Source: an uncultured Gemmatimonadales bacterium (GTDB taxonomy: Bacteria; Gemmatimonadota; Gemmatimonadetes; Gemmatimonadales; Gemmatimonadaceae). Taken from it: 64,000 bases of DNA. Position numbers and translations under genes: made by a program. Below, in pieces: positions 3,232 through 12,960 of this stretch (position 1 is the first letter of the stretch; every line of letters begins with the position of its first letter). The DNA lies in NCBI GenBank assembly GCA_963701965.1, contig OY969695.1, forward strand, positions 3,776,001 through 3,840,000, given 5' to 3'. The notes beneath the pieces were generated by a model that had not been told where the DNA came from, searched no databases, and was given only the letters and a program-made list of their open reading frames with translations.

Positions 3232-4173
3232 TTATCGGAGCCGAATGCCGGGATACCAGCCGCTCTTGGCCAGAAACGCCTTCGGATCGTTCATCGCCAG
3301 GATTTCGCGAAGGGCGCGGTGCTTGTCGTCACTATGCTGGTAGTAGGATTTGACGATGCGATAGCCGACCCAATAGCCAAGGTCGCGCGGGTGCTCCATA
3401 GTGCTATTGTAGACCCAGGCTGAGAGATCGGTCTTGTCCTCGTCGGGGACGAACGCGGTCTCGATCTCCAATTCGCGCCCTTTGGTGGCGGTGTCGAGAT
3501 AGGCATAGCTGACCCCGCCGGATGTCAGTTCGCCCGTGAAATCCGCGGCCCCCTCGATGAGCGACACCTCGAGCACGGTTGGGTGTTCGTCATCGACCAG
3601 CGCCCGCACTTGCTGGGCGTGGACATATTCGTGCGCGATCGAGTGCACGAAACGGTCCTCGACACTGGCACCCATCCAGTTCGTTGCGCACAGCGCCTCG
3701 AGTCCGATCTGGACGCCAGTGACCGGACTGCCCACGCCCACTGGCCTCCCTCGGCCGACGGCGATCGTGACTGGAGGGAAGTGTGCCGGCGGATAGAGGC
3801 GACTCATTTCGCGCCTGACCGCGACCACACGCTGGCGCACCTGTGGCAAGACCGCCAGGCAACGCTTGGCGTCCGAATACATCTCCGGATGCTCGGCCAA
3901 GTTCTTGGCGATCGCTTCCCCCGTAATCCTGCGCAGCTTCGCAAAGTCGTGAAGTCCCTGCGAACCATCATCGAGATAGTCGTGCTGCAACTGATCGGCG
4001 GTCGGATGTCCCCCAGCGGCGTCGTAGATCCTATAAAATGCATCGACGTCCGAGATGTCGATGACCGCTTCCGCTGCCTGGTTCGAGGCTTTCGCAGAAG
4101 CCTCCGGTGGCGCTCCTGAGAACGCGGCACAGACGAGAGTACCGACGACAGGCCAGAGATTGATCCGCTGCAT
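3232..4173 (-). CDS. Secreted DUF2268-type putative Zn-dependent protease
   Basis: Signal peptide, HEYVH, EGAADF, DLGYWVGYRIVKSYY; GGAGGAG RBS before ATG 4173. Confidence 0.8.
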   Translation of the reverse strand: MQRINLWPVVGTLVCAAFSGAPPEASAKASNQAAEAVIDISDVDAFYRIYDAAGGHPTADQLQHDYLDDGSQGLHDFAKLRRITGEAIAKNLAEHPEMYSDAKRCLAVLPQVRQRVVAVRREMSRLYPPAHFPPVTIAVGRGRPVGVGSPVTGVQIGLEALCATNWMGASVEDRFVHSIAHEYVHAQQVRALVDDEHPTVLEVSLIEGAADFTGELTSGGVSYAYLDTATKGRELEIETAFVPDEDKTDLSAWVYNSTMEHPRDLGYWVGYRIVKSYYQHSDDKHRALREILAMNDPKAFLAKSGWYPGIRLR

Positions 4174-4199
4174 GACTCTCCTCCGAATTTGCACGAGAC

Positions 4200-4315
4200 G
4201 ACTGGCCCGGTGGGCCGGGCGTGAAGGTTCACTGGTCCTCGGGCACCGCACGCGCAACATCGGCGGTCAAGCGGTGGAGCATCTGGCCGTACCGCACAAA
4301 GTCATCGATCGACAT
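4200..4315 (-). pseudogene. 5' remnant of a DinB-like gene (second copy of ~7520-7636)
   Basis: MSIDDFVRYGQMLHRLTADVARAVPEDQ*TFTPGPPG versus MSIDDFARYSTMLHRLTADFARAVPEDQWHFTPAPPG; TGG>TGA at 4229-4231. Confidence 0.85.
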
Positions 4316-4702
4316 AAGGTGATGCTAGCAGCCCGGCCACAAAGATTTAAGTGTCATCTATGCAGAAGCTGTTGAAGGGGACCGAGGCCGCCTACGACAG
4401 TACGCTGGGCGGTGTCAGCGCGAGATGAACGACAACGCGATGCCCGTAGTTCACCCAGGGGTCACTTGGGCCCATTGCACAAGCGGAACTCTAGCGCGTT
4501 GCTAACAGGCGAGCGGTGTCACGTCGACCGAGTACAGGTTGCGTGTGCCGTTGTAGATGTCGCTCGTTACTTCACGCAGCACATTGTCATACGTGGGGCC
4601 GCTGCGCTGATCGCCGGATCGCCGCCTTTGAACGGCAGCGTCTAAGTCGTGAGTCGCGGCTGTGACGGCAGGTCTCCGCGTGGTGGTCGGCATGGGATCC
4701 GC

Positions 4703-5992
4703 TTAGCGGGTTCGCACATTACCATACATCGTCACTACCGGGAGCACACTTCCGGAATCGCCAACCTCCCTTGGGCTTCGCTCCCATACGAATCGGAGGC
4801 CACCTGAGTCCATCATGAGCGACGGTGGCCCAAATGTCGGTTCCGCAAAACGCCGATCCTCGGTCGGGACGCCAGCGATCGGCATTCGGACGTGGCGGAG
4901 GATTATACCGCCGTTCTCCAGTCTCGTCATCATGACGTGGATCATATCGCACTCGTCCACGGCGATCTGCGACTCGCTCACGAGCCCTGAGAGCGGCAAT
5001 GCGCGCTGATCCGTCCAATGCGATCCGTCCGTCGAGGTCGCGTGCAGCAATGCACCGGCTTCCAATGTGTGCGGATTTCGGCCGGCGATCCATATCACGT
5101 GCACGGTGCTCCTGTTATCGACCACGACCCGAGGTTGATACGCCAGCCCTTGTTCCGTGCGCGAGAGCGGCATGCGGTCGCTCCACGTGCGGCCCGCGTC
5201 GGTGGATCGAACAATGTAAAGTTGGTTGGAGGGTTGGTTGATGTCCTGAATCGCTGGATTCGTCGTAACGTAGGCTATCACAATCCGTCGCGCCCCGAGC
5301 GCAGCCAAATCGACGTAGATCGGCGGTCCGAGACCGAAAGGCAGCTCATGGACGGACCAGGCGTGCCGCTCGAGCCGCAGGTAGGCCATGACCGCGCCTC
5401 CATGGTCGCGCGGATCTGCGCCAAACGCCAATGCCAGGGCATTCGACGAGTCCACTATCAAGTTGGACGCGTTCGTAACGTCCCAAACGATTTCCCACGC
5501 ATGGTAAATCGCTTCGGGTCTCGACCAATGTCCCTTATGGAACGTCGCGTGCCAGAGTGTCGTAAACCGCATCCGATGAAGATTCAGATCACTCAGGCCG
5601 CGTCGGTCTGAACTGTCCGGCTCAGCCCATACAACGTGGAGTACCCCATCGCGGTCGACGACTGCGCGGGGAGACGCGAACACGAAGTCGCCCCGCAGTG
5701 CAGCGGGTGCGAGCTCGTGGCGATCGAGACGATACACTCTGAGCGCGAGTGCTGACCGAGCCGTCGCGCTGGTATCGCGGACCCGCACGACCACACCCTC
5801 GACACCGACGACATAAAGTGCCGAGCCTCTGCCCGCAATCTGCGGAAATCGGAGCCATGTCGGGAGACGGCCCAAGACGTGTGGAACGGTTGCGACCTCC
5901 TCGACGCATGTCGAAGGCCGAGCCACACCGAGGCGATGCGACGCGGGCGCTATCGCGCCCAGCGTCGCGATGATGACGGTGAGTCGCGCTAT
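4703..5992 (-). CDS. Secreted BNR/Asp-box beta-propeller protein (sialidase-like fold); start uncertain
   Basis: Asp-boxes STDAGRTWS and STDGSHWT, repeated 'D..G.LHVVW' blades; in-frame hydrophobic stretch upstream of GTG 5926. Confidence 0.7.
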   Translation of the reverse strand: MARLTVIIATLGAIAPASHRLGVARPSTCVEEVATVPHVLGRLPTWLRFPQIAGRGSALYVVGVEGVVVRVRDTSATARSALALRVYRLDRHELAPAALRGDFVFASPRAVVDRDGVLHVVWAEPDSSDRRGLSDLNLHRMRFTTLWHATFHKGHWSRPEAIYHAWEIVWDVTNASNLIVDSSNALALAFGADPRDHGGAVMAYLRLERHAWSVHELPFGLGPPIYVDLAALGARRIVIAYVTTNPAIQDINQPSNQLYIVRSTDAGRTWSDRMPLSRTEQGLAYQPRVVVDNRSTVHVIWIAGRNPHTLEAGALLHATSTDGSHWTDQRALPLSGLVSESQIAVDECDMIHVMMTRLENGGIILRHVRMPIAGVPTEDRRFAEPTFGPPSLMMDSGGLRFVWERSPREVGDSGSVLPVVTMYGNVRTR

Positions 5993-6025
5993 GGTCGATG
6001 CTCGGCTACGGCGAGAATCTTGGGG

Positions 6026-6760
6026 TCAGATGCTGCCACTGGTGGCCGAGGTTCCAAAGTTAAAGGTCGCGCCGCCGATATTAATCCAGTGATTGGTCAA
6101 CAGGGATGCTGGCTGTGCCGTGGGACTCGTGAGCAGTACGTCATACCGACCGGTAGCAAGGGGTGTAAGGTGGTTGAAATCTTGGGCATGCTTCAGGGTA
6201 TCCGCGGCGAGCACAAGGGACGCGTGCATCGTTCCGCCAAGCTCGTTGTCAAACGGCTCGCAATCAAGCCCCGATGTGCAAGCCGTCCCGGCCGCAAATG
6301 TCACATTGCGTGGAATTCCAGGTGGGTTATCCCGCCCGATCGTGGAATATATCGCCAAGCACGTTTGGCCATTGCTGTCAAAAAAGAAACACTGGTTCGC
6401 GGTTCCCGAAGAGTCAAGCGTCGCTTCCGCGCGAATGGTGTGGTCGCGCACATCGGGATCTGGCAAGGCGCGTTCCAGGATGGCCAACAAGTCATCGACC
6501 GTCGCATTCGGCTTCCCTGCGATGCCAACATGAAACCCGTCTTGCAAGATTGGGTCGGCGGCGACTCGCTTCAGGTACGCAATCTCACGACGCAGGCCAG
6601 CCTCGCCACCGTCGACACTTGCCTTACCTGCCGCCAGGCCGCCGTCGGCGCGGCCCTTCTCACGCACGGCTGACACTGGTGAGTCGACGCACGCGACGAC
6701 GAGGGTCAGAGCAATCAGGGCGCACAATGGCCTCACGCAATGTCGCTGGCTGCTTGTCAT
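6026..6760 (-). CDS. Hypothetical lipoprotein
   Basis: GGAG RBS, ATG 6760, signal peptide with lipobox LVVAC. Confidence 0.65.
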   Translation of the reverse strand: MTSSQRHCVRPLCALIALTLVVACVDSPVSAVREKGRADGGLAAGKASVDGGEAGLRREIAYLKRVAADPILQDGFHVGIAGKPNATVDDLLAILERALPDPDVRDHTIRAEATLDSSGTANQCFFFDSNGQTCLAIYSTIGRDNPPGIPRNVTFAAGTACTSGLDCEPFDNELGGTMHASLVLAADTLKHAQDFNHLTPLATGRYDVLLTSPTAQPASLLTNHWINIGGATFNFGTSATSGSI

Positions 6761-7015
6761 TATTGCACTCCGTGTAGGTTCGCCTGAGTGGTATGATGCC
6801 AATGAAGCGGGAGCACTGCGGTGCGATGTGACAGTCTAAGCACAATGTATATCGCATTGTACGATGCGCTTCACGATCATTTAGTTGTTACGCGGAAGAG
6901 ATGCGCGAACAGTCCATTCATAGCAAGCAGCACGGGTGTTGAATAAGTCCAAGCTTGCAGATTGGCAAGCGATGGAAGCAGTGCGCAGCGTGTATGGCCA
7001 CCGAATAGAGAACGG

Positions 7016-7078
7016 CGGTTGATGATCGCCGCCGTCATCGCCTGGGGGGCGGACGTCGAGGACAGAGACGCCGGCGCG
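7016..7078 (-). repeat. Degenerate direct-repeat copy of the DUF58 gene 3' segment (10709-10770)
   Basis: 63 vs 62 bp, about 3 substitutions plus 1 indel; both encode RAGVSVLDVRP-QAMTAAIINR. Confidence 0.9.
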
Positions 7079-7275
7079 TCCCTTGCTCGGCGTACTCCGT
7101 GACGGTCCGTTGCGCCGGCACTCTGAGCATGCGGTCATAGAACTTTGACCAGTTCGGGGAGCGCTCGTGATGAGGCAGGTGTCGACCAACGCCGTCGCGG
7201 GTAGTCGAGCGCCGTGTGCGAGACGCAACGCGCGGTCGATCGACGTTCGTAGATCCGGAGGCACGGTGGAGCTGT

Positions 7276-7636
7276 CGATTGGCGCGTCGATGTCAACGGT
7301 TTCCAGTATGGCGAGCAACTGTCGCTGCTTGTCGTCGAGCGCCGCGAGGAGCGCGTCCCGCGTCAGCGGGCCGACATAGTGCTCGTGTCGGCGCGTCCAA
7401 TCGACGCTTTTCGTCGCTAGCGCCGCACTGTAGACGCCGCGCGCACAGACGACGTGCCGCAGTTGCTTGCAAAACGGCGCGAAACCGTCGCCAATGCGAT
7501 GCAGGGCCGCCGCACGGCCAGGCTTGCCGGGAGGGGCCGGCGTGAAGTGCCACTGGTCCTCGGGGACCGCCCGCGCGAAATCGGCGGTCAGGCGGTGGAG
7601 CATCGTGCTGTACCGCGCAAAGTCATCAATCGACAT
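7276..7636 (-). pseudogene. DinB-like protein, 3'-truncated
   Basis: DinB-type N-terminal helices and QLRHVV, but it diverges after ...DAPID and lacks the C-terminal HExxHxGQ helix. Confidence 0.6.
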
Positions 7637-7666
7637 AGGCGCTCGTGCTCGTCACGTAATCGGGCC

Positions 7667-8207
7667 TCAGTCTCCCTTCACCGCCGTACCGAACAGCTGA
7701 CCGAGCTCGCGGAGCGCTTTGCGCGACTCGAATGCAAATAGGCCGATGGTCATGAGGCCGGCCCAGGCCAGCATCACAAACGGGATGATGAGCAGTGGGT
7801 CGCGCCCGCCGGTCGCGAACGCGTACACCACCACGAGGCAGCCGACGATCACGGCGCCAAACCAGAATGATCGTGAAGATGCGAGCGGGGAGCGGGAGTG
7901 GCGATAGCGTGATGGTGCCGTCCACCCTCGTGGTGTCGCCCGCTGAGACAAGCCGACCGCGAATGACTGGTCGGACGCTGTTCCGATAGCCGATGATTCG
8001 CCAGATCTCAAAGCTCGTCTCGTCGAGACGCCCCTCGAACGGGCGCGCGCCAGCCGAGCGTTGCAATTGTTCGGGCTCGATCGCGGCCGCCAGGCGGGCG
8101 CGCGCCGAGGCTAGCGGCAGCGGAGCGTCGATCACGAAACGACGGACCCGAATGAGCGCTGTCCGCGGGGACACGACCCGTACCGGCGCCGGCGTGACCG
8201 TTGACAT
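7667..8207 (-). CDS. Hypothetical membrane protein, split by a +1 frameshift at ~7866
   Basis: Removing one T in ATCATTCTGG joins ...ARIFTII to WFGAVIVGC... (two TM helices); ATG overlaps the R-M stop (TGATG). Confidence 0.7.
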
Positions 8208-10675
8208 CACGTGTTCACCCCCGTAATTCGATAAGCGTTCCTCGCGCATCGCAGCGACTCTTCCGCCCTATCGACGGCCGTCCGGTACTCGGCCTCGGCG
8301 GTTCGCAGTGCCGCGGAAATTGCGCGTTGCTGGTCGACGCCGCCAGCGAGATCGACGACGATCGACTTGACGTGTTCGGGAGTCAATTCGATCAGGCCGG
8401 TAGAGCCCGTGAACTGTCGCTCGATTTGCGCCGCCCCGAATCCGCACCGCAGGTAGTCGGACAGATACTCGGGGAGGACCTCGTCCGCCCTGACACGCAC
8501 GACGGTCACGTGCCCGTCTGCGATCGCGGGGCGATCAGAATCGTAGACACAGCTCTTTCCCAGCGTCCCATCGCCGGTGGACGCGATCAGCACGTCGCCG
8601 CGCCGCACGATGTGGGCGGGCGATTGCTCCTCGAACACGTTCTTCTCGATATAGTCGCCGTCCGTGACCAGCTCGCCGAAACGCGAGATGTTGCTCCCAG
8701 CCTTCACGACCAGCGCGTACCCATCGTCTTCGTCGACATACAGATCCGCGGGAGGACTCTTGCCCCGGCCCGTCGCGATGGTGTTCAACTCCGCGATCGA
8801 CTTCCCGCCTGCGGCCCGCACGGCGGCGATCTGTTGGCGAATCTCCGGATCCCAGTACTTGTAGTCCAGACGGGCATCGGCGCTAGCCACGATCTCCTTC
8901 GTCGACACGTCGTACGCGCTCCACATATAGCCCGACCGCTCGCCACAGCCCGCTTTGCCCACGATGCTATCGGAAGCCTCTCGCAGCAGCCTCTCGAAGT
9001 CGAAGTTCCGCAACGCGTCGCCGGACCCGGCGTAACCCAACGACTGGACGTCCGCGAAGGTGACCGGCGCATCGTCGTCGCCGTCGACGTCGTCGGTCTC
9101 CCGACGTTGCAAGTATAAGACACTGGCTTTGACGTTGATCTTGTTCGGCTTGAACGTCTCATCCGGTAAGCGCACCACCGCCACAACGCGACACTTGGTG
9201 AGCAGCCATCGCCGAAGGCCGGCCGCACCCTCGGTATTCAGCACTCCTTCGTCAATGACGGTGCAGATCTGACCACCGTGCTTCGTGCACCGCACCATCT
9301 TCTGCAGAAAAAGATGCTGCCCTTTTGTGCTGCGGATCGGGTATTCCGACAGATCCCCGCTGGGAAGCGAGTCCGCCTCGGATGTGCCGAACGGCGGGTT
9401 GGTCAAGACGATATCGACATCCGGGTTCTTGGTCTCCCAGATGCGCGCGCTCGCCGCAAGCGTGTCCTCGGCCCGAATGTTCGTATGTCCATCGCCGGCG
9501 ATGATCATGTTCATCTTCGCTGCCGCCGCGACCCCCTCGTTGGCGTCCGCGCCGAAGAAGGTGTATCGCCCGATCTTGGCGGAGATATCGTCGAAAGCCT
9601 GTCTCGTGATCTGCCGACTATCGTACCTGTCCTGCAGCACGCGCTGCGCGTCCTTCATCATGAGCACCAAAAATCCGCCGGTGCCGCACGCAGGGTCGAG
9701 CACCTTGACCGAGGAACCAGCGAGCAAAGAGTTGACTATTTGCTGGCGTCCGATGAGGCACGCCATCAGCTCGACCAGGGGTCGAGGCGTGAAGTACTGA
9801 CCCAATTTCTTCCCTTTGAGCGTAGCGCGTACGAAGTACTCGAACGCCGCGCCCTTCGTATCCAGACCGCTGTCCTGGAATGAAACCGCGGCCAACTGCT
9901 CGATGATGTAGCGAAAAGTCCGCGGCTTGTTGAGATGGATGTCGTCGCCCAGCACATCGCCGAACGTCGCATGCTGTCTGATCCCGGCGATCATCGCGAG
10001 GACCGCGTCCTTGACCTGATCACTGTCCGACACCGGCCGACTCGCCAGTTCGTGAAATCGATACGAGTAGGGAAGCGTGAAGTCCGAGGTGTCCGCCTTC
10101 TCTTCGAGCAGTTTGAGAAAAAGGAGCTTGGCGAAGTCGGCAAAAGCTTCGTCCTCGTTCTTTTCGATCTTTCGGATCGTGTTATGGCACCGGGCGAAGA
10201 GCGCGTTGAGCTGCTTGAGCGCTAGTCCGGGCCGGAACGGAAGACTCGTATCGCCGTCCAGCGGGAGCCCACCGGCCTCGAGGTGGACCATGACAGCAGG
10301 CACTTGCGCCTTGGCCGGGATACGATCGACGAGCGCCCCCTGTATGGGAGCCCGCGTAGCGACATTGAAGCTCTGCATTGCCGCGCCGTTGGTGACCACC
10401 ACGAACGGCACCGCCATCGCCGCCCCATACGCCAGCGCCTGGTCCCGATCCTTCGCCGTCAGCGTCTTCGACGATCGCTTTGCTTCGATGAGAAACAAAG
10501 GCTTTGGTTTGCCACACGTCACCAGGATGTCGACGTAGCCCCTGGCATACCGGTCAGAGTTGGCGACCGGCGTCTCGAATGCGAGGTCCTTGACGGCGTC
10601 GTAGCCCCGGCGCGCGAGATAGGGCAAGATCTTCTTGATGACGGTCTCCGTCTCCGAGGGCCTCTGGCCACGCAT
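8207..10675 (-). CDS. Single-chain restriction-modification enzyme: HsdR_N-like PD-(D/E)xK nuclease, N6-adenine MTase and C-terminal TRD (type IIG/IIC-like)
   Basis: YVDILV...LIEAK; GQYFTPR, VLDPACGTGGFL, NPPF; HsdS-like TRD (RRGDVLIASTGDGTLGKS) and terminal helix. Confidence 0.9.
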   Translation of the reverse strand: MRGQRPSETETVIKKILPYLARRGYDAVKDLAFETPVANSDRYARGYVDILVTCGKPKPLFLIEAKRSSKTLTAKDRDQALAYGAAMAVPFVVVTNGAAMQSFNVATRAPIQGALVDRIPAKAQVPAVMVHLEAGGLPLDGDTSLPFRPGLALKQLNALFARCHNTIRKIEKNEDEAFADFAKLLFLKLLEEKADTSDFTLPYSYRFHELASRPVSDSDQVKDAVLAMIAGIRQHATFGDVLGDDIHLNKPRTFRYIIEQLAAVSFQDSGLDTKGAAFEYFVRATLKGKKLGQYFTPRPLVELMACLIGRQQIVNSLLAGSSVKVLDPACGTGGFLVLMMKDAQRVLQDRYDSRQITRQAFDDISAKIGRYTFFGADANEGVAAAAKMNMIIAGDGHTNIRAEDTLAASARIWETKNPDVDIVLTNPPFGTSEADSLPSGDLSEYPIRSTKGQHLFLQKMVRCTKHGGQICTVIDEGVLNTEGAAGLRRWLLTKCRVVAVVRLPDETFKPNKINVKASVLYLQRRETDDVDGDDDAPVTFADVQSLGYAGSGDALRNFDFERLLREASDSIVGKAGCGERSGYMWSAYDVSTKEIVASADARLDYKYWDPEIRQQIAAVRAAGGKSIAELNTIATGRGKSPPADLYVDEDDGYALVVKAGSNISRFGELVTDGDYIEKNVFEEQSPAHIVRRGDVLIASTGDGTLGKSCVYDSDRPAIADGHVTVVRVRADEVLPEYLSDYLRCGFGAAQIERQFTGSTGLIELTPEHVKSIVVDLAGGVDQQRAISAALRTAEAEYRTAVDRAEESLRCARNAYRITGVNT

Positions 10676-12001
10676 TACAACGCCCCCTTTCCCTTGATCT
10701 CCAGATACCGGTTGATGATCGCCGCCGTCATCGCTTGCGGGCGGACGTCGAGGACCGAGACGCCGGCGCGCCGCATCCGCTCCAGCGCCTCGTCTCGCGC
10801 CGAGAGAAGCTCTTCCGCGGCCGCCGTCTCGTAGATCGCCTGCGTCGTCGCGCGGCCCGTCGGCGTCGCGGCGGCGACCAGCGCGTCGTTCCGGAGCGCG
10901 ACGACGAGCGGGAGGTGGACCCGCGTGCCGTGCGTCGCCAGCGTCAACAGGGCGCGGGAGGCGCGGACGTCGATCACGTCCGTGTACAGGACGAGCAACG
11001 AGCGCCGGCGGACCCGCGCGGCCAAAGTGCGGAACGCCGCCGCATAGTCCGGTTCCGTCATCGTCGCCTGGACCGGCACCAACGCATCGCGAATGAGCGG
11101 CAGCGCCGCCGTCCCGCGCGTCGGCGGCACGAACGCCCGCACCGCGTCATCAAACAGCAAGAGCCCCACGGAGTCGCCCGTGCGCGCCGCGATGTTCGCC
11201 AACACCAACGCCGAGGACAGCGCGTACTCGAACCGGGGCAGGGGACCCGCCAGCTGCGTCATGAGCCGCCCCGCATCGATCAAGATCATCACCGTCTGTC
11301 CCTGCTCGATCGAATACTCCCGCGAGATCAGCCGCCGGCGTCGCGCCGTCGCCTTCCAGTCCACATGCCGCGGATCATCCCCCACCATGTAGTCGCGCAA
11401 TCCCGCGAACGCCGTCCCCTCGCCCCGGCGGCGCCACACCCGTACCCCCATCTCCCGCAACCGCATCGGCAGCGTCCGCAACTCGTACCGCCGGAGATCC
11501 GCGATCGATGGGATCACCGTCAGACGATCCCCCCCCCAGCCGGTAGCGAAGACTGCGGTCGATCCATCCCAACGGCCCCCGCACCCGCAGCACCAACGGT
11601 CCCAGCGCGAAATCCCCCCGCGTCCGCCCGGTGAGCGATACCGGGATCGCCGTCTCGCCCCGCGGCGCGATCGCGAACGGGATCGGGCCCGTCCCCGCGC
11701 GCTCCACGGCGGGCGGCAGCGCATCGTAGACCGCGCCCACCACGCGGAGCGGCCACGACGAGCGGAGCACGTACCGGGCCCCGACCGCGTCCCCGATGCC
11801 CACGGTCCCCACCAAATCGCGGTCCACGGCGATCGCCCGCCATCCCGGCGTCATCGCGATGTCGACCAGGCATCCCACCACGATGGCCAACCCCACGATC
11901 AACGGCGCCACCCCAAACCCGTACGCCGCCAGTACCCACACCGGCGCCGTCAGGAGCACCACGCCCGCCAATCGCCGCGTCGGCGTGACGGGGATCATCA
12001 T
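10675..12001 (-). CDS. DUF58 (vWA-like) protein, frameshifted at a G9 tract (11529-11537)
   Basis: GEGTAFAGLRDYMVGDDPRHVDWKATARR, LIDAGRLM; N-terminal half lies in another frame and G8 would restore a single ORF. Confidence 0.88.
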
Positions 12002-12960
12002 TGCGGCGCCGGCACCCGCGTCAAGATCGCCGCCAGCACCTCGTCCGCCGTCCGACCCTCGACATCCAGCTCCGGCGCCACCAGCAACCGGTGCCGCAAC
12101 ACCGCCGGCGCCAGATCCTTCACATCGTCGGGCGTCACGAAGTCACGGCCTGCCACGAGCGCCGCACCGCGCGCCGCCCGAAACAACGCCACCGTCGCCC
12201 GCGGCGATCCCCCCAGGGTGAGACCGGTGTCGTCGCGCGTCGCCCGCACGATCGCGGCGATGTACTGCCGCACCTCCGGCGCCACCGTGACTCCGTCTAC
12301 GGCCCGGCGCAGCGCCTCGCATCCCGCCGCGTCGACCACCGGCGCGATCGGCCGATCGCCCAACCGATCCGCATCGAACCCCTCGACATACCGGTCCAGG
12401 ATCGCCACCTCGGCATCCGCCGCCGGATACCCCACATTCACCTTGAGGAGAAACCGGTCCAACTGCGCTTCCGGCAGCGGAAACGTCCCCTCGTATTCGA
12501 CCGGGTTCTGCGTCGCGAACACCGTGAACAACGATCCCAGCGGCCGCGTCGCCCCGTCCGTTGTCACCTGCCGCTCCTGCATGGCCTCGAGCAATGCCGC
12601 CTGCGTCTTGGCCGGCGCCCGGTTGATCTCGTCCGTCAACAAGAGATCGGTGAACACCGGCCCCGCGCGAAACTCGAACGCCCGCGATGCCTCGCTGAAC
12701 ACACTGATGCCCGTGACGTCCGACGGCATGAGGTCCGGCGTGAATTGAATCCGCCCGAACCGGGCGCCGAGCGCCTCCGCCAGACTGCGCACCAGCAACG
12801 TCTTGGCCGTCCCCGGGACCCCCTCGATCAGCGCATGCCCCCGCGCCAAGAACGCGACCAGGATCTCATCGATCACCGCGTTCTGGCCGATCACCCGTTG
12901 GGCGACCGACTCGCGGACCCGCGTGAGCGTGATGGCAATGCCTTGGGCGTCTACGGTCAA
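11998..12960 (-). CDS. moxR: MoxR family AAA+ ATPase
   Basis: GVPGTAKT, RIQFTPDLMPSD, DEINRAPAKTQAALLEAMQE, ATQNPVEYEGTFPLPEAQLDRF; TTG start overlaps the upstream TGA. Confidence 0.95.
   Translation of the reverse strand: MTVDAQGIAITLTRVRESVAQRVIGQNAVIDEILVAFLARGHALIEGVPGTAKTLLVRSLAEALGARFGRIQFTPDLMPSDVTGISVFSEASRAFEFRAGPVFTDLLLTDEINRAPAKTQAALLEAMQERQVTTDGATRPLGSLFTVFATQNPVEYEGTFPLPEAQLDRFLLKVNVGYPAADAEVAILDRYVEGFDADRLGDRPIAPVVDAAGCEALRRAVDGVTVAPEVRQYIAAIVRATRDDTGLTLGGSPRATVALFRAARGAALVAGRDFVTPDDVKDLAPAVLRHRLLVAPELDVEGRTADEVLAAILTRVPAPQ

Follow-up and report, generated by a model that had tools for sequence, protein, structure and literature searches.

Orphan gene tails mark an integrase-free, polar insertion hotspot at the 3' end of a DUF58 gene in a Gemmatimonadota genome

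Insertion of e14 or phage 21 into icd of Escherichia coli leaves the original tail as the orphan remnant icdC and provides the gene with a long replacement 3' end that carries silent differences. These elements bring the integrase that inserts them, unlike what is found at the locus described here, the 3' end of a DUF58/vWA gene downstream of a MoxR-type ATPase gene in an uncultured Gemmatimonadales bacterium (G000; assembly GCA_963701965.1). In a study of E. coli, linear DNA with one-sided homology led to duplication of the lacZ end in 56 of 60 clones, over 109-950 bp in the 14 that were sequenced (PMC3240628), and a hotspot survey reports that 27% of hotspots lack any mobility protein (Oliveira et al. 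2017, PMC5635113). No description of a DUF58/MoxR integration site or of a Gemmatimonadota case was found in the literature searched, outside which most subscription papers lie. The genome analysed is one 5.12-Mb contig (C1), and the window, meaning the whole 64,000-nucleotide stretch, corresponds to G000:C1:3776001-3840000; coordinates are window positions unless marked as genome, G001-G005 are congeners and L numbers denote loci compared. The feature is a hotspot of polar insertion with no integrase at the locus, recognisable by the orphan tails of genes. It is real, and the original prediction, which proposed tandem units of swappable cargo between a DUF58 3' segment and a dinB 5' segment, had partly misread it.

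Insertions appear to have recurred at the DUF58 3' end, where orphan copies of the gene's tail mark the site. In G000, a segment close to the end of the gene recurs beyond the adjacent cargo (Table 1) with 59 of 63 positions identical and one 1-bp gap (E 6e-18 in a whole-genome search). The orphan, probably a displaced allele, differs by three substitutions, all synonymous, and by one extra C within a C run. The dinB 5' segment at 7523-7637 recurs at 4202-4316 (97/115 identical, E 3e-28), and no further copy of either segment exists in the genome. The repeats reported at both flanks are genuine; the gene order, the cargo identities and the change of dinB codon 29 from TGG to TGA also hold (Pfam, PADLOC and reading of the open reading frames (ORFs)). 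The decay attributed to the distal flanks is a more qualified matter: the indel and the TGG>TGA change exist, but the DUF58 indel is an extra C in a C run that may be an assembly error, and the substitutions are silent. The DUF58 gene itself is frameshifted in a 9-G run, while all five congeners have a single open frame. Since both indels sit in homopolymer runs and the DUF58 frameshift is unique to G000, assembly error is possible at both, or slippage for the DUF58 run. The spacer was also considered as a decayed continuation of DUF58 (7079-7275) and rejected, as 121 of 300 shuffles in 2-base blocks scored equally well; 7079-7258 has no match elsewhere in the G000 genome or in the five congeners.

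Orphan DUF58 tails are carried by three of the six species of the genus. G005 has two, of 138 bp at 4.8 kb and of 30 bp at 6.6 kb, and G003 has one of 135 bp on contig C24 and one of 92 bp on C15; the starts lie about 96 bp before the gene end in G000, 138 and 31 bp in G005, and 135 (C24) and 91 bp (C15) in G003. The cargo differs in each case, and the unrelated cargo around the tails of G000, G005 and G003 bears out the predicted hotspot with strain-specific cargo at the DUF58 end. In the six-species count, G001 and G002 offer 1-3 kb of downstream contig and G003 C16 stops at the gene; G004 has no orphan DUF58 tail within 15 kb. The G003 assembly holds three MoxR-DUF58 operon alleles (C24, C15 and C16, or L035, L036 and L135), mosaic along the sequence and on short contigs, and mixed strains therefore occur in such assemblies. 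A chimera of two strains, with which the homopolymer frameshifts of G000 would also agree, is nevertheless highly improbable, as G000 is a single contig, both repeats are short (62 and 115 bp), and a matching scar is found elsewhere in G000 as well as in G003 and G005, which were assembled separately. When 301 genomes of the family were searched at the protein level, 186 gave a match, and nearby second copies appeared in this genus only (four unpublished genomes are counted, and second matches in G083, G090 and G207 were set aside); the search is insensitive, because it missed the frameshifted orphan of G000 itself. One 40-bp hit, in G156, was too weak to be counted as an orphan tail. A metagenome scan, in which 80 loci were kept and 44 checked, revealed no duplicated tail at the distance expected for cargo; in L081, short local repeats directly follow the stop codon, and L125 alone is genus-like, with 897 bp downstream.

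Similar scars are found at other genes of G000. Among 3687 called genes, non-coding copies of the last 200 bp lie within 30 kb in 14 cases downstream and 5 upstream, compared to 0 and 1 for the first 200 bp and 2 and 0 for mid-gene pieces. Six of the 14 were dropped by eye: two tRNA-island ends, an IS110-like transposase end, a decayed ABC paralogue, a repeat overlapping a convergent gene and a module duplication. The eight remaining, unrelated protein genes, several of them in accessory regions, keep downstream orphan tails beyond 1-22 kb of cargo without a recombinase. In 13 gene-orphan pairs (these eight, the dropped module case and four congener DUF58 tails), 51 of 90 differences fall at codon position 3 (p 5e-6) and 51 are synonymous; in the DUF58 pair of G000 all three are. 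As differences fall mostly at third codon positions, the tails derive from diverged working alleles, which argues against simple self-duplication and fits both models that remain, namely homology-anchored insertion and site-specific islands. A tandem duplication that arose locally and then decayed, without any foreign allele, would explain the direct repeats in the same order and the stop codon in the second dinB. It conflicts with the silent-site bias, with the repeats ending at or near stop codons, with unrelated DNA of lower GC between them (58-66% between about 2.4 and 10.6 kb, against 67% overall) and with residue V7 of the second dinB, shared with an outside homologue and not with the first copy, and there is very little to be said for it. 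Tail copies are absent behind the extracytoplasmic-function sigma gene in five congeners and behind the enoyl-CoA-hydratase-like gene in two; the congener neighbours of these two anchors are not nearby in G000, which leaves no clean empty site.

The wider interval points to a direction of growth. In other genera of the family, DUF58 directly abuts its ancestral neighbour, the convergent RDD-SpoIIM gene, in 9 of 12 loci (L042-L053; L045, from the unpublished G012, is among the nine, and the statement holds without it) and also in L041; L049 has a short insert between them, and at two loci from other families the genes are unlinked. In G000 the two genes are 29.7 kb apart, and the interval measures 26-84 kb in eight contiguous assemblies of two sister genera, with RDD inverted in G022 and G156. 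Counted in quarters starting at DUF58 and finishing at RDD, the genes of G000 shared with another interval number 0/4, 0/8, 1/14 and 7/8. Sharing likewise rises from 7/18 to 19/19 in G123 and from 7/16 to 16/16 in G279, with the exceptions of G156, which is flat, and G166, which is lowest in the second quarter. Because sharing tends to rise away from DUF58, new material enters at the DUF58 end, and the orphan-tail site is the youngest end of the 29.7-kb variable region.

The role given to dinB in the original prediction, that of a conserved second flank, is not sustained. Full-length relatives have 168 residues, whereas the proximal copy, taken as flank, is itself a fragment ending near codon 121-126 and the distal one ends near codon 42. 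The dinB subfamily of G000 is matched in one of five congeners, on a contig other than that of DUF58, and where G002 and G004 have DinB_2 genes close to DUF58, the G000 dinB does not match them. The comparison of relatives returned the variable cargo downstream of DUF58 but did not place this dinB near DUF58 in the five congeners. Both pieces are truncated accessory genes, and the distal one would lie at the far end of an oppositely directed insert with a different anchor gene. G000 does show the order A-X-B-A'-Z-B', and G005 and G003 C15 have a comparable arrangement built from other shared genes. Notwithstanding, the second repeat differs by genome (an epoxide-hydrolase piece, a DUF5674 partner, a 66-bp non-coding piece), and cargo swapping between two conserved flanks is decidedly unlikely. 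The repeating unit appears to be a gene tail plus cargo with one anchor, and not DUF58 and dinB twice; of the proposed homology-driven recombination, a likely role for homology at the DUF58 tail stands, but not its operation through two paired flanks.

A further repeat had been missed. The end of a glycosyltransferase gene 10 kb outside the window recurs on the + strand of the window (E 3e-6); the copy corresponds to the stretch from 53 to 14 bp ahead of the end of the gene, is in frame and lies fifty bases from the distal dinB start. The region may consist of two inserts from opposite sides, one anchored at DUF58 (10675-7079) and one at the glycosyltransferase (up to 4366), with the lipoprotein-BNR pair probably sitting between them. 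The glycosyltransferase orphan would then bound a separate 10-kb insert that has the distal dinB piece at its far end. A matching opposite-side tail scar is found in G001, on a cargo TIR gene beside DUF58.

No match to Phage_integrase (PF00589) or Resolvase (PF00239) was found in the window or over the 30 kb past its variable end, the locus has no recombinase of the tyrosine or serine type within 200 kb, and no integrase or transposase family was found among 77 proteins (19 + 58) scanned from the window and from the 20 kb that precede it. The reported lack of integrase and transposase genes in the window extends to the adjoining DNA scanned. G000 as a whole has 14 tyrosine and 2 serine recombinases. 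Neither PF00589 nor PF00239 was matched in any of nine contiguous DUF58-RDD intervals (transposases were screened in G000 only). None of five genomes has an IntI integrase above the TIGR02249 cut-off, and self-comparisons showed no repeat family between cargo genes, although attC hairpins themselves were not modelled. Xer/dif integration was considered without gaining support, as GC skew indicates no clear terminus at the locus and no dif-like match was found there.

The explanation tentatively preferred here, to which we give nearly an even chance, is the one-sided, homology-anchored insertion of DNA from relatives without a dedicated integrase. A donor fragment would bring a DUF58 tail plus cargo and could enter in two ways: recircularised, by one crossover, for which Ku, encoded in G000, is invoked; or with one end anchored by homology and the other joined by an illegitimate event shortly before the stop codon. 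Both routes would restore DUF58 with the donor tail and orphan the resident tail beyond the new cargo, and the gene at the far end of the fragment, here dinB, would be cut. Filled alleles would then likely spread via ordinary homologous recombination, and deletions would erode older units. A homology anchor from a diverged working allele is observed. Furthermore, the anchors are many and unrelated (eight G000 genes and the G001 TIR gene) and the tails vary from 31 to 138 bp, as expected without target specificity, which supports homology anchoring. The presence of Ku, the gene cut near the far junction and the precedent of the lacZ-end duplications in E. coli (PMC3240628) also speak for it.

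Several observations weigh against this explanation, and many of them suit a second one, in which site-specific islands with the DUF58 3' end as their target have accreted in tandem, each providing a replacement tail, the orphan being attR; their integrase modules would later have been deleted, as in cis-mobilizable elements (CIMEs), or would act in trans. The 3' bias (14 tails downstream, against 1 head upstream and 0 downstream) resembles that of integrase targets, and the symmetric use of 5' and 3' anchors is not seen, although promoter-side anchors may be under-detected. Orphan starts form two pairs (138/135 and 96/91), to which erosion may contribute. Tails of 31-62 bp offer RecA only a short stretch of homology. 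No orphan was found by nucleotide search in the eight contiguous sister-genus intervals that share the hotspot, and the G003 C15 orphan is an exception to the silent-site pattern, with four of five differences non-silent. G000, which is 95% complete, lacks a match to ComEC (PF03772), and islands interrupt its comM, so that transformation is not supported as the entry route. Integrase loss is frequent in G000: 7 of 14 tRNA loci hold tRNA-tail copies, mostly starting at positions 24-39, without an integrase between. The closest relative of the cargo restriction-modification (R-M) gene lies in a 3.1-kb cassette flanked by tRNA-like repeats, and relatives of the second cargo lie in a serine-recombinase island. 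The silent-site bias is also expected from islands. Two findings from relatives also fit them: next to DUF58, two genera share a RibD_C-type segment of 605 bp with 95% identity (L040 and L138, from G002 and G227), and a short, conserved non-coding motif directly behind the stop codon occurs in most of 17 alleles from three genera, with two variants that cut across genera. The comparison set window positions 10640-10675 against L034, L035, L036, L125 and L136-L147; the motif is lost in G000 and absent in G004 and G123. Together with the tail it is found in 3 of 401 genomes of the order, all of sister genera.

Against islands, no recombinase is found at any of the five DUF58 orphans or the eight protein-gene sites; an integrase lies between the copies at 0/8 of the latter and at 7/14 tRNA sites (Fisher p 0.02, the eight having been chosen post hoc by eye). 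One gene shows at least three tail lengths, the many unrelated targets would require many lost integrases, and the 5' ends of the orphans have no common sequence beside them. In G003 C24 the donor tract is longer than the orphan: private SNPs begin near -210, about 75 bp upstream of the orphan start at -135, which later allele replacement would also explain. No phage or plasmid with a DUF58 tail was found in the viral contig and plasmid collections searched, nor an intact integrase-bearing element (PF00589, PF00239) at the site in 17 clade genomes, several of them incomplete. Site-specific islands are thus a serious but somewhat doubtful alternative. That the DUF58 stop codon and the post-stop motif form a docking site for an unrecognised trans-acting recombination system common to the three genera seems unlikely; such a system would load cargo in polar order, integron-like, without integrase, attC or transposase at the locus. 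The motif was also considered as a terminator hairpin, but six copies were not stable (z-scores -0.6 to +0.9).

Table 1. Features of the DUF58 locus and its surroundings (window positions)
Feature	Position	Strand	Remarks
MoxR-type AAA ATPase	11998..12960	-	Pfam AAA_3/AAA_lid_2; 87% identity to G004; conserved operon upstream of hotspot
DUF58/vWA gene, anchor	10675..12001	-	Pfam DUF58; two frames, break in 9-G run 11529-11537
Live copy of duplicated DUF58 tail segment	10709..10770	-	96 to 34 bp before gene end
Cargo 1: fused R-M protein	8207..10675	-	HsdR-N nuclease domain, N6 methyltransferase, specificity-like C-terminus (Pfam)
Cargo 1: small membrane-type protein, two overlapping ORFs	7667..8249	-	ORF list
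Truncated DinB_2 gene	7259..7636	-	Breaks off around codon 121-126 of 168; towards the distal limit of cargo 1
Spacer before orphan tail	7079..7258	.	About 180-200 bp, unrelated DNA
Orphan DUF58 tail	7016..7078	-	59/63 identity; without last 34 bp of gene
Cargo 2: secreted or lipoprotein-like ORF	6026..6802	-	GC3 (GC at third codon positions) 0.64
Cargo 2: BNR/Asp-box protein	4703..5926	-	Pfam BNR_4
Orphan tail of GT4 glycosyltransferase (gene at genome 3769291-3770433)	4367..4405	+	34/39 identity, in frame
Second dinB fragment	4191..4315	-	Codons 1 to about 42; TGA at codon 29
DUF2268 Zn-protease-like gene	3232..4173	-	Part of glycosyltransferase-anchored insert; paralogue at genome 2201795-2202615

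Pfam assigned MoxR, DUF58, the fused R-M gene, DinB_2, BNR and DUF2268 in the window. Residues 7-815 of the R-M protein match PADLOC PDLC03317 (E 3e-301), and its relatives, at 46-63% identity, are spread over many phyla. Its gene has a GC3 of 0.79, compared to 0.90 for DUF58, and is probably expressed from the DUF58 operon, because its ATG overlaps the DUF58 stop codon (TAATG). At L209:7606-10750 the nearest relative is the sole called gene between a pair of identical tRNA-like repeats of 43 bp, and is followed by genes that we take to resemble a Wadjet/JetABCD set. The small membrane-type protein has no family match above the cut-off. The lipoprotein-like ORF has a distant copy (26%) at genome 936412-937137, inside a serine-recombinase island inserted in comM, where a 42% identical partner of the BNR protein adjoins it. 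The pieces of comM (YifB) are separated by serine-recombinase islands and conjugation-gene remnants (G000:C1:933258-946000 and 968000-982212; L196, L197). Elsewhere in the genome, tRNA-flanked mini-cassettes of 0.9 and 1.3 kb without an integrase occur at G000:C1:1838198-1839155 and 2762400-2763741, and four tandem tRNA-Arg tail copies stand behind genome 1834740. CRISPR-like short repeats with 66-bp spacing are found at G000:C1:4077562-4078263 and 4117036-4117272, and a large cluster for polysaccharide biosynthesis, with glycosyltransferases, deacetylases, an O-antigen ligase and an asparagine synthase, occupies 26000-64000 of the window.

Both candidate mechanisms have already been described in print. 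Double crossover explains cargo swapping at integrase-free hotspots, but not the first insertion, of which orphan tails are a countable footprint. The DUF58 locus offers independent repeats of this event at one gene across species, with the tRNA islands of G000 as a built-in control, and the two mechanisms are therefore separable with strain-level data. With regard to the known systems, single-crossover insertion-duplication (Amarir-Bouhram et al. 2011, PMC3240628) shares a 3'-end duplication of variable length around the insert and the lack of an integrase; it differs as a laboratory construct in E. coli with identical tails of 109-950 bp, whereas the DUF58 site is natural and recurrent with diverged tails of 31-138 bp. 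True homology-facilitated illegitimate recombination (HFIR) gave deletions in that study, not duplications. The hotspots of Oliveira et al. (PMC5635113) likewise have a large variable interval between core genes without an integrase, but the double crossover proposed at their core flanks swaps alleles and by itself leaves no orphan tails. Arrays of type VI secretion system (T6SS) effector-immunity genes and Rhs displacement arrays (Kirchberger et al. 2017, PMC5361080) resemble the locus in the polar addition beside a conserved anchor and the backward displacement of older pieces, and an HFIR-like mechanism is proposed there. They swap a toxin domain with its immunity gene, whereas DUF58 is a non-toxin anchor that keeps its protein end and takes arbitrary cargo; no toxin C-terminal domain with an immunity gene was found as the swapped unit, the cargo being R-M, BNR and other genes. 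In CIMEs and tandem island accretion (PMC5704250), as in the ssrA islands of Dehalococcoides (PMC3146451), copies of the target 3' end bound the units, many of them integrase-free, and direct repeats of the target 3' end lie at the unit boundaries of DUF58 as well. Those systems have a fixed repeat and intact integrase-bearing members, while the DUF58 tails vary in length and no such member was found.

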